In this document: piece by piece, positions 3,265 through 3,868 of the stretch
Layout of the letters: the number at the start of each line of letters is the position of its first letter
Numbering within the stretch: the first letter of the stretch is position 1
Assembly (NCBI GenBank): GCA_963745025.1
Contig: CAVUWD010000007.1
Location: forward strand, 1 to 64,000
Direction of reading: 5' to 3'
Length of the DNA stretch: 64,000 bases
From: an uncultured delta proteobacterium
GTDB taxonomy: Bacteria > Desulfobacterota > Binatia > JACPRU01
The notes under the pieces: generated by a model
Database searches by the model: none
Seen by the model: only the letters and a program-made list of their open reading frames with translations
Told to the model about the DNA's origin: nothing
Program-made: the position numbers and the translations under genes

Positions 3265-3366
3265 AGTTCCGTAGGGCAGTTCGGCATCGACATCCGCGCG
3301 GAGGGGCCGAGAAGACCGAGTACCGCTCGCCGGTTACCGAGCAGCCGGAAGTTGGTAGCCTCATAG

Positions 3367-3402
3367 GAAGAAGGGAGCCGGAGAATTCCGACTCCCTTCT
3401 TC
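3367..3402. terminator. Intrinsic terminator-like hairpin, probably bidirectional
   Basis: GAAGAAGGGAG (3367-3377) and CTCCCTTCTTC (3392-3402) form a perfect 11-bp inverted repeat between the convergent EthD gene and the minus-strand unit. Confidence 0.7.
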
Positions 3403-3629
3403 TTCAAACCCCGGCGATTTCTTTTCCGCTATGCGACGCGGCCCGCAGGGTGACTCCCCGCTGCTAGTCCCGAGGGGGTCCAGCCGAGCATTCGGCCCGT
3501 TCGTTCATCGTTCGGAATTCTCGGATGGACCCCCTCACAGCGTGGCTTACAGGAACCGCTCGGGGCGGTGGTGCCTGGGCGTCCCAGGCTGACAACCACC
3601 CGTTTCAGCAATCAATCGGGTGACCCGGC

Positions 3630-3674
3630 CTAAGGACCCACCACCTCACACGTCACCATTCGAAGATACATCAT
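3630..3674 (-). CDS. Putative 14-aa small ORF MMYLRMVTCEVVGP behind an extended Shine-Dalgarno
   Basis: AAGGAGGTGATCCAGCC (3691-3675) is immediately followed by ATG ATG TAT CTT CGA ATG GTG ACG TGT GAG GTG GTG GGT CCT TAG. Confidence 0.4.
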   Translation of the reverse strand: MMYLRMVTCEVVGP

Positions 3675-3839
3675 GGCTGGATCACCTCCTTCCTCGGCGT
3701 GTACACCACGCAGGCCCAGAGCACCTGCCAGCCAGGAACCGACCGCCGAATTGCCGGCCCGAGGCCCGGTCCGCGGCGTCCCGCCCCATTACGGGAATCG
3801 TCGCGCCAAGGGGCTCGTGAGACCCCGACCGTTGGGCGC

Positions 3840-3868
3840 ATTGTACACGAACGTTCCACGAATGAGAA
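3840..3868 (-). promoter_or_regulatory. Sigma70-type promoter for the candidate RNA
   Basis: TTCTCA (3868-3863), 17-nt spacer, TACAAT (3845-3840) on the minus strand. Confidence 0.55.

Follow-up and report, generated by a model that had tools for sequence, protein, structure and literature searches.

An enlarged relative of the orphan small RNA Ms_IGR-5 with a probable ribosome-docking anatomy in an uncultured member of the Binatia

The DNA considered here (the window) is a stretch of 64,000 nucleotides from the genome of an uncultured delta proteobacterium of the class Binatia. On its minus strand, flanked by serS and a convergent gene for an EthD-type protein, lies a stand-alone RNA gene at approximately 3833-3405, possibly extending to 3365. 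This locus is a single-copy, independently transcribed structured RNA and, as judged from sequence comparison, a distant and enlarged relative of the actinobacterial small RNA (sRNA) Ms_IGR-5 (Rfam family RF02471). Its novelty is that of an enlarged variant of an orphan sRNA family with a newly recognised ribosome-docking anatomy. Since it combines a perfect docking site for the 3' tail of 16S rRNA with a tiny reading frame, the RNA probably works by engaging ribosomes, and we favour, with a probability of about 0.55, its being a ribosome-engaged switch or a ribosome-titrating RNA.

The locus had been singled out in an original prediction, made by a model from the letters alone, which described, on the minus strand, a discrete structured RNA presenting an anti-16S segment, saw no credible long open reading frame (ORF) in it, and took it for a non-coding RNA of an undescribed family. 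The observation is confirmed, with most features lying where they had been placed, and the discrete structured RNA was borne out; the interpretation is partly supported. As RNA, the region 3835-3365 folds with -236.3 kcal/mol, against -209.1 ± 6.7 kcal/mol for 100 shuffled sequences (z -4.03), none of which folds as well. No ORF of more than 40 codons in the region has a profile of GC content at third codon positions (GC3) resembling that of the flanking genes. A long ORF is thus indeed absent by this measure, but a conserved ORF of 14 codons had been overlooked (Table 1).

Relationship to Ms_IGR-5 and to other known RNAs

Within the window, none of the Rfam families attains its gathering score; RF02471 scores 15.7 bits there (E 0.14-0.6), below its gathering cut-off of 45 bits. 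The RF02471 model aligns over its full length (1-184) to positions 3525-3702 of the minus strand, which is its best hit in the whole genome, and in this genome and 12 other relatives the best RF02471 hit is the very locus found independently by DNA search. Among 41 relatives searched, 26 have an RF02471 hit at E<=1, and a single one (G024, 46.7 bits) passes the cut-off. When 16 homologous loci were scanned, the six from Actinomycetota, according to their record titles, matched the whole model with 64.6-88.9 bits, and the other ten gave no RF02471 hit at gathering. A confident Rfam hit, named with the original prediction as grounds for refuting it, is therefore lacking for the window itself and present for its homologues. 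None of 14 control genomes has an RF02471 hit at the stricter default threshold, whereas at E<=1 two of them, Caulobacter vibrioides and Thermus thermophilus, show sub-threshold hits.

The elements of the core consensus, namely GGAAGGAGGUGGUCC, a start codon, GUGAGGUGG, UAG, CACC and the closing stem, are all found in the window and in the same order. The order of the core is that of Ms_IGR-5, with an extended Shine-Dalgarno (SD) site, then a mini-ORF (ending in ..CEVAA[S/R] before the stop), then a CACC element, and last a closing stem and terminator. With a core (anti-16S site, mini-ORF and 3' domain) that is homologous to RF02471, the suggestion of an undescribed family is not supported. 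Several differences from the known family are nevertheless evident. Actinobacterial loci and the RF02471 model start about 10 nt before the SD, as expected of a transcript of some 180-200 nt, whereas in the window, as in non-actinobacterial relatives, some 140 nt of covarying 5' domain come first, and in the window this domain is included in contigs assembled from environmental RNA. The subclade of the window further adds a 65-nt insertion and a second hairpin, and RNA of the window type occurs outside Actinomycetota.

Ms_IGR-5 was first found in Mycobacterium smegmatis. In 10.1101/2021.12.14.472595, IGR-5 is described as a validated, uncharacterised sRNA of M. smegmatis, transcribed from between MSMEG_5794 and MSMEG_5795 and NAD-capped. 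Hits to RF02471 with RNA-seq support have been reported in S. lividans (PMC8079986), an sRNA unit has been described for S. avermitilis (PMC8780764), and Ms_IGR-5 was detected again in a cold-shock study (PMC10454040). A literature search, whose coverage did not extend to the original paper or to supplements, returned no functional study of the Ms_IGR-5 family and no description of an anti-16S site or mini-ORF in it.

Several other RNA classes were considered as identities of the locus. Neither Rfam nor ARAGORN finds a tmRNA (RF00023) or a tRNA in the window, and the tmRNA of this genome is located on contig C16 (155.9 bits); RNase P RNA (RF00010) has no Rfam match in the window, the genome's copy being located on contig C9 (257 bits). 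As to 6S RNA and signal recognition particle (SRP) RNA, no Rfam family was found at gathering in the window, to which that search was confined.

Resemblances of a more general kind exist. tmRNA carries a tRNA-like domain and is devoid of an SD or start codon; the RNA of the window resembles it as a stable structured RNA of similar size whose internal mini-ORF would be read by ribosomes. In leader-peptide attenuators and in dual-function sRNAs such as SgrS/SgrT and RNAIII/hld, a structured RNA contains a short ORF that is translated and that is surrounded by alternative pairings, and the locus likewise combines a short ORF, a structured RNA and alternative pairings. It differs from these classes in that no co-oriented regulated gene follows (the EthD gene is convergent, and among 139 homologous loci the neighbours vary and are often convergent), and in that its peptide is under little constraint at the amino-acid level. 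6S RNA and Ms1 are machine-mimic RNAs, which imitate the preferred substrate of a central machine. Here the likeness is in concept only: the target would be the ribosome and not RNA polymerase, and there is no match in sequence or structure. Last, the consensus of CC2171 (RF01867) from Caulobacter begins with GAAAGGAGGUGAUCCAGUG, i.e. the anti-16S tail followed by GUG, as in the window. RF01867 aligns to 3476-3701 of the minus strand with 12.3 bits against a gathering score of 75, the similarity being limited to the SD and a terminal stem, and CC2171 may represent a related class in Alphaproteobacteria.

Table 1. Positions of the RNA elements and flanking genes in the window.
Feature	Position	Strand	Remarks
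serS	3954-5231		Pfam tRNA-synt_2b and Seryl_tRNA_N
Promoter-like site	3868-3840	-	-35 TTCTCA at 3868-3863, 17-nt spacer, -10 TACAAT at 3845-3840
5' domain	3831-3692	-	P0, P1, nested P2, P3 and P4 hairpin; absent from the 184-position Ms_IGR-5 model
P0	3831-3827	-	pairs with downstream GACCG
P1	3826-3810	-	compensatory changes in relatives, GGGG/CCCC versus GGAG/CUCC
P2			nested hairpin, loop UAAUGGGG; pairs changed on both sides: outer helix 3, 6/7; inner helix 4, 6/6
P3			conserved loop UCGGCGG; helix 5, 5/11 pairs changed on both sides
Anti-16S segment	3691-3675	-	AAGGAGGUGAUCCAGCC; placed as extended SD site
Mini-ORF	3674-3630	-	14 codons (MMYLRMVTCEVVGP) and UAG at 3632-3630; ATG directly after the anti-16S segment
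16S-tail look-alike	3630-3619	-	GGCCGGGUCACC; 10/12 letters alike; specific to the family of the source genome
Hairpin GGUGGU..GCCUGGG/CCCAGGC.ACCACC	3600-3567	-	seen in the sequence
3' domain	3565-3409	-	multi-branched; closing stem 3565-3556 / 3417-3409
Insertion hairpin	3536-3472	-	65-nt insertion of the subclade of the source genome, inside the 3' domain; compensatory changes in relative G003
Hairpin with conserved UCACC motif	3460-3446	-	inside the 3' domain
Extra hairpin	3402-3367	-	16-bp stem without U tract, between the RNA and the convergent EthD gene
EthD gene	2803-3264	+	convergent on the RNA; Pfam PF07110, E 5.5e-13

Docking site, mini-ORF and secondary structure

The central feature of the RNA is its anti-16S segment, and in this respect the original prediction was correct. 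The segment is a 17-nt perfect complement of the 3' tail of the genome's own 16S rRNA, whose gene ends ...GCGGCUGGAUCACCUCCUUUCU, and it covers the whole single-stranded tail; the predicted duplex between the two comprises 20 bp (-41.4 kcal/mol). Among 62 homologues the segment is near-invariant, with two variable positions only. As these are A/G and C/U, wobble pairing with 16S rRNA is kept. A 13-nt copy of the 16S tail was also noted outside the rRNA gene, in GC-rich sequence on another contig of the same genome (C16:331453-331465, locus L147), and is probably a chance occurrence.

A GGA-rich segment of this kind could also belong to a classical base-pairing or protein-sponging sRNA, binding mRNAs or a CsrA-like protein, with the ORF being incidental. 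The recovery of Ms_IGR-5 with heterologous Hfq, mentioned in a review (PMC4109619), would fit such a role. However, the complementarity is not that of a short seed but extends along the full single-stranded tail of 16S rRNA, and the position of the start codon compensates for changes in spacing, unlike what is expected of an incidental ORF, so that we regard this explanation as highly improbable.

The docking site appears to have competitors within the RNA itself. In the family of the source genome, positions 3686-3675 are predicted, by thermodynamics alone, to pair with the look-alike of the 16S tail at the end of the mini-ORF, with a probability of 0.98-0.99 in the ensemble of the window sequence. 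In other families, CCUCCU at the end of the ORF is a potential partner of the SD (95% of cells paired, without covariation), a pairing that was lost in the family of the source genome. By this reasoning, ribosome and 16S-tail look-alikes would be rivals for the docking site. The loop of P3 may also form a pseudoknot with the bases just before the SD, in which one pair is compensatory.

The mini-ORF begins directly behind the docking site, and its conserved 3' half contains GUGAGGUGGUG. In the search pattern by which the homologous loci were collected, three elements were prescribed (the SD, the block GUGAGGUGG and a stop of the form TAR), while start codon, spacing and flanks were left free. 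An in-frame ATG, GTG or TTG located 9-22 nt after the SD is present in all 108 unique cores obtained from the 139 loci, compared with 9 and 14 cores for the other two frames. Moreover, the offset of the start codon follows the distance between SD and block modulo 3 (13 or 16 for a remainder of 2, 17 for 0, and 15 or 18 for 1), which argues that the frame is under selection. In view of this conservation of frame, which extends across phyla, the purely non-coding nature attributed to the RNA is not supported.

What is selected seems to be the RNA rather than the peptide. Codon -6, which precedes that for glutamate, is TGT in 79 cores, AGT in 15, CGT in 8 and GGT in 6, thus encoding C, S, R or G, and yet its third base is T in 108/108. 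The N-terminal half of the peptide varies freely. This fixed third base, together with the variable residue and N-terminus, points to selection at the RNA level rather than at the peptide level.

The same data bear on the possibility that the locus is an ordinary small-protein gene, with a peptide of 12-17 residues ending in EV[V/A]xx as its product and the structure as a stabilising or regulating untranslated region (UTR). A strong SD and a maintained frame are what such a gene would show. The invariant Glu-Val followed by V or A and then by mostly small residues, and a last residue which is Ser in 79/108 cores through both TCN and AGY codons, also point in this direction. Glu-Val and the class of stop codon were, however, fixed by the search pattern, and the pattern of codon -6 and the unconstrained N-terminus are at odds with a selected product, as are the peptides of the family of the source genome, which end in GP or GS, and the presence of about 400 nt of covarying structure around an ORF of 45 nt. 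A small-protein gene is therefore decidedly unlikely, and translation serving an RNA-level function, as in a ribosome-engaged switch, is in better keeping with the codon pattern.

In the consensus structure, helices 10-13 connect the 3' half of the mini-ORF to the 3' domain, and in helix 13, which joins the ORF end to the 3' domain, 7 of 13 pairs have changed on both sides. GGUGGUG (3645-3639) can pair with CACCACC (3573-3567), as it does in 99.7% of cells, with one pair changed from UA to CG in 4 sequences. In the subtype of the window, CACCACC may alternatively close the local hairpin at 3600-3567, which had already been noted and is present.

Covariation was assessed by comparison of homologues. 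An nhmmer search with a profile of 8 sequences against the 139 loci yielded 133 matches, of which 78 were full length. Because the mixed alignment A5 failed to bring helices P6 and P8 of the two subtypes into register, formal pair counts were made on MAFFT alignment A6, with 47 sequences of the window's subtype and with the 22 sequences of the other subtype left out; variable stems are less well aligned by nhmmer, MAFFT and RNAalifold than they would be by Infernal. In A6, 92.1% of 4441 cells are paired, as against 36.6-46.8% when partners are slid. Changes on both sides affect 43 of the 95 pairs, versus 19-24 in the slid controls, and 309 cells versus 47-79, and none of 500 shuffles reaches any of the observed measures. 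When stacked covarying pairs were scanned for, the closing stem (12 bp, 7 covarying) and P3 (8 bp, 6 covarying) stood out.

Within the 5' domain, pairs changed on both sides amount to 2/4 in helix 1 and 2/4 in helix 2, besides those of P2 and P3 (Table 1), and the hairpin originally described near the 5' end corresponds to helix P1, with compensatory changes in relatives. Within the 3' domain, the corresponding values are 5/9 for the closing stem (helix 15), 3/4 for helix 17 (P8) and 6/6 for helix 18 (P9). A U tract comes directly after the closing stem in other families. The long irregular stem of the original prediction is present as well and represents the insertion specific to the subclade of the source genome. 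The proposed pairing of the ends of the RNA (3813-3804 with 3416-3409), on the other hand, was rejected: comparative data place 3417-3409 opposite 3565-3556 instead, in the covarying closing stem. The repeat CGGUUCCUG does occur twice, in the 3' strand of P3 (3741-3733) and just after the 5' strand of the closing stem (3558-3550), but is confined to near relatives. A tertiary pairing suggested by RNAalifold, between CACAG in the loop of P1 and CUGUG in the ORF, was dropped, the variants in the family of the source genome not being compensatory.

Transcription, genomic setting and distribution

The promoter-like site noted upstream of the RNA withstood closer analysis, being the sole sigma-70-like site within 2600-4400 (one found versus 0.2 expected). 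A TAnnnT hexamer is found at the same alignment position in 7/7 sequences of the family, conservation in the family alignment sets in at 3831, and the putative start of transcription is near 3833-3831. The situation at the other end of the gene is less clear-cut. The terminator-like hairpin of the original prediction is real as a 16-bp stem, is present in 5/7 family sequences and has the terminator stem of CsrC as its only Rfam similarity, but it has no U tract and a terminator scan of the region returned 0 terminator-like sites. It may be a terminator in use for the RNA, for the EthD transcript, or for both. The sequence UUUG is found at 3408-3405, after the closing stem.

Evidence for expression was obtained from environmental RNA. 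By a k-mer index, 18 runs recorded as RNA contain 0.43-0.57 of the sampled words. Contigs were placed on the locus for four runs, each of a different study (two of soil, one of freshwater sediment and one of an unspecified metagenome). Every run gave one contig, and these cover 3514-3846, 3524-3824, 3530-3824 and 3536-3825 with 0-1 differences. Three of the contigs end at 3824-3825, i.e. 7-9 nt inside the putative 5' end, and thus hint weakly at a start near 3833. Runs X2, X3 and X8 have no contig on serS or on the downstream flank; absence of contig cover, here as over 3513-3365, is not evidence of absence.

The gene neighbourhood speaks for a stand-alone RNA, since the downstream EthD gene is convergent and since neighbours vary among loci. 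None of the neighbouring genes is conserved among the 139 loci, the largest neighbour cluster occurring in 34/139, and among the most frequent downstream clusters several lie on the other strand. Pfam hits of the representatives of neighbour clusters are unrelated to each other (DNA polymerase III delta, CoA-transferase, SGL, SDR/aldolase, CCG). A cluster assigned to serS, from the serS C-terminus of its representative L007, is found upstream in 11/139 loci.

A role in cis, either as 3' UTR or terminator region of serS or as leader or attenuator of a downstream gene, might be suspected from its position 85 nt after serS in the family of the source genome, from the terminator-like stem at the end of the locus, and from the one RNA contig that extends upstream of the putative start. 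But adjacency to serS is limited to that family, the downstream gene is convergent, the RNA has a promoter-like site of its own, and the contigs of runs X2, X3 and X8 stop short of serS. Taken together, this makes a cis-acting element scarcely tenable.

A DNA search of the 41 relatives gave matches in 20. Within the same family, 6 of 7 genomes match with 77-93% identity; the match extends over 450-500 nt in the four nearest genomes and over 236-290 nt in the two remotest. In the remaining families of the class it is limited to the central ~150 nt. Of 301 genomes of the class, 125 contain the strict core pattern, always as exactly one copy; one carrier genome (G182) is unpublished. A reversed control pattern is found in none. 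In a collection of species-representative genomes, the strict pattern occurs in at least 119 stretches. Among the 80 titles listed, most are of Candidatus Binatia; others are of Methylomirabilota/Rokubacteria, Nitrospirota, Myxococcota/'Deltaproteobacteria', Thermodesulfobacteriota and Actinomycetota, with single cases of Limnocylindria, Terriglobales and Gemmatimonadales. These taxon labels are the depositors' record titles, some of which are clearly unreliable. The strict pattern is absent from three families of the class (f2, f8 and f14, with 0/25, 0/49 and 0/21 genomes, respectively), and since RF02471-like hits are found there nonetheless (for example 46.7 bits in G024 and 36.5 bits in G032), a third sequence subtype exists.

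Possible modes of action

If the RNA is indeed a ribosome-engaged switch or ribosome-titrating RNA, its action may be pictured as follows. 30S subunits would dock on the anti-16S segment and displace the internal look-alikes of the 16S tail. The mini-ORF would then be translated for the act of translation and not for its peptide, and the passing ribosome would unzip the helices formed between ORF and 3' domain, flipping the RNA between two folds. The RNA could thereby report on, or tie up, free translating capacity. For the MS_IGR-5 homologues of two actinobacteria, M. abscessus and M. smegmatis, PMC4974804 reports ribosome-protected reads in significant numbers.

A simpler version of ribosome engagement is that of a pure decoy, the ribosomal counterpart of 6S RNA, in which an ideal mimic of an initiation site parks 30S or 70S particles on an SD duplex of 15-20 bp. 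The ribosome would be held there by the structure that follows and by GAGGUG, an SD-like sequence ahead of the stop, and the stop codon would provide a safety exit only. The energy predicted for the duplex with the genome's own 16S tail is consistent with this, and so is the alignment, which can be read such that the conserved structured part of the ORF starts just past the footprint of a ribosome at the start site. The RNA was also found in small RNA libraries of several studies, and its stop codon is UAG in 104/108 cores, though the pattern allowed only TAR. Contigs cannot rank abundance, however, and one copy per genome leaves the stoichiometry relative to ribosomes unfixed, while strict maintenance of the frame (108/108) suggests that ribosomes do reach the stop. 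On balance we consider a pure decoy unlikely, although not negligible.

Several points weigh against a switch or titrating RNA that is actively translated. The authors of PMC4974804 caution that ribosome footprints are found on many non-coding RNAs. An SD duplex of 15-20 bp might block elongation rather than promote it, and all steps beyond translation of the mini-ORF are inferred throughout. The conservation of SD, GUGAGGUGG and stop among the 139 loci is partly due to construction, since these elements were fixed in the search. The tested structure is the RNAalifold consensus of the very alignment on which it was tested, and the relatedness of the sequences causes the shuffle control to overstate significance. 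Regarding the pairings on which a switch would depend, those between SD and internal mimics include 0 pairs changed on both sides and, in the source genome, are a thermodynamic prediction; the P3-loop pseudoknot and the helix between ORF and CACCACC have one covarying pair each, which probably reflects a single event in each case.

The definition of the transcript is open to similar objections. The contig of run X1 (333 nt, 1 difference) extends 13 nt (3846-3834) beyond the putative start and into the -10 hexamer, so that transcription may start further upstream or DNA may have been present in that library; it speaks against a single clean start. The contigs yield neither strand nor transcript ends nor level, and 3513-3365 is without contig cover, leaving the 3' end (~3405 or ~3365) unfixed.

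It may be asked whether the likenesses described above extend beyond the Ms_IGR-5 family. Ms_IGR-5 and the Binatia-type RNA could belong to one ancient, multi-phylum class of ribosome-docking RNAs, which might also include CC2171 of Caulobacter and the Thermus locus. Such stable structured RNAs would imitate a perfect initiation site, pair with all of the single-stranded 16S tail while also containing internal copies of it, and capture or gauge free ribosomes, thus providing a translational counterpart to 6S RNA. We put this forward as a speculation that is unlikely to hold.

The range of the Ms_IGR-5 family, going by record titles, is much wider than Actinobacteria, and the RNA is present in metatranscriptomes of soil and sediment. 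The RF02471 model misses most of the non-actinobacterial members and could be rebuilt. Ms_IGR-5, a validated but orphan sRNA, gains a testable hypothesis, in which full complementarity to the 16S tail is combined with an in-frame mini-ORF selected at the RNA level. If titration or sensing of ribosomes by this RNA proves true, global control of translation in bacteria would have a further, new layer.

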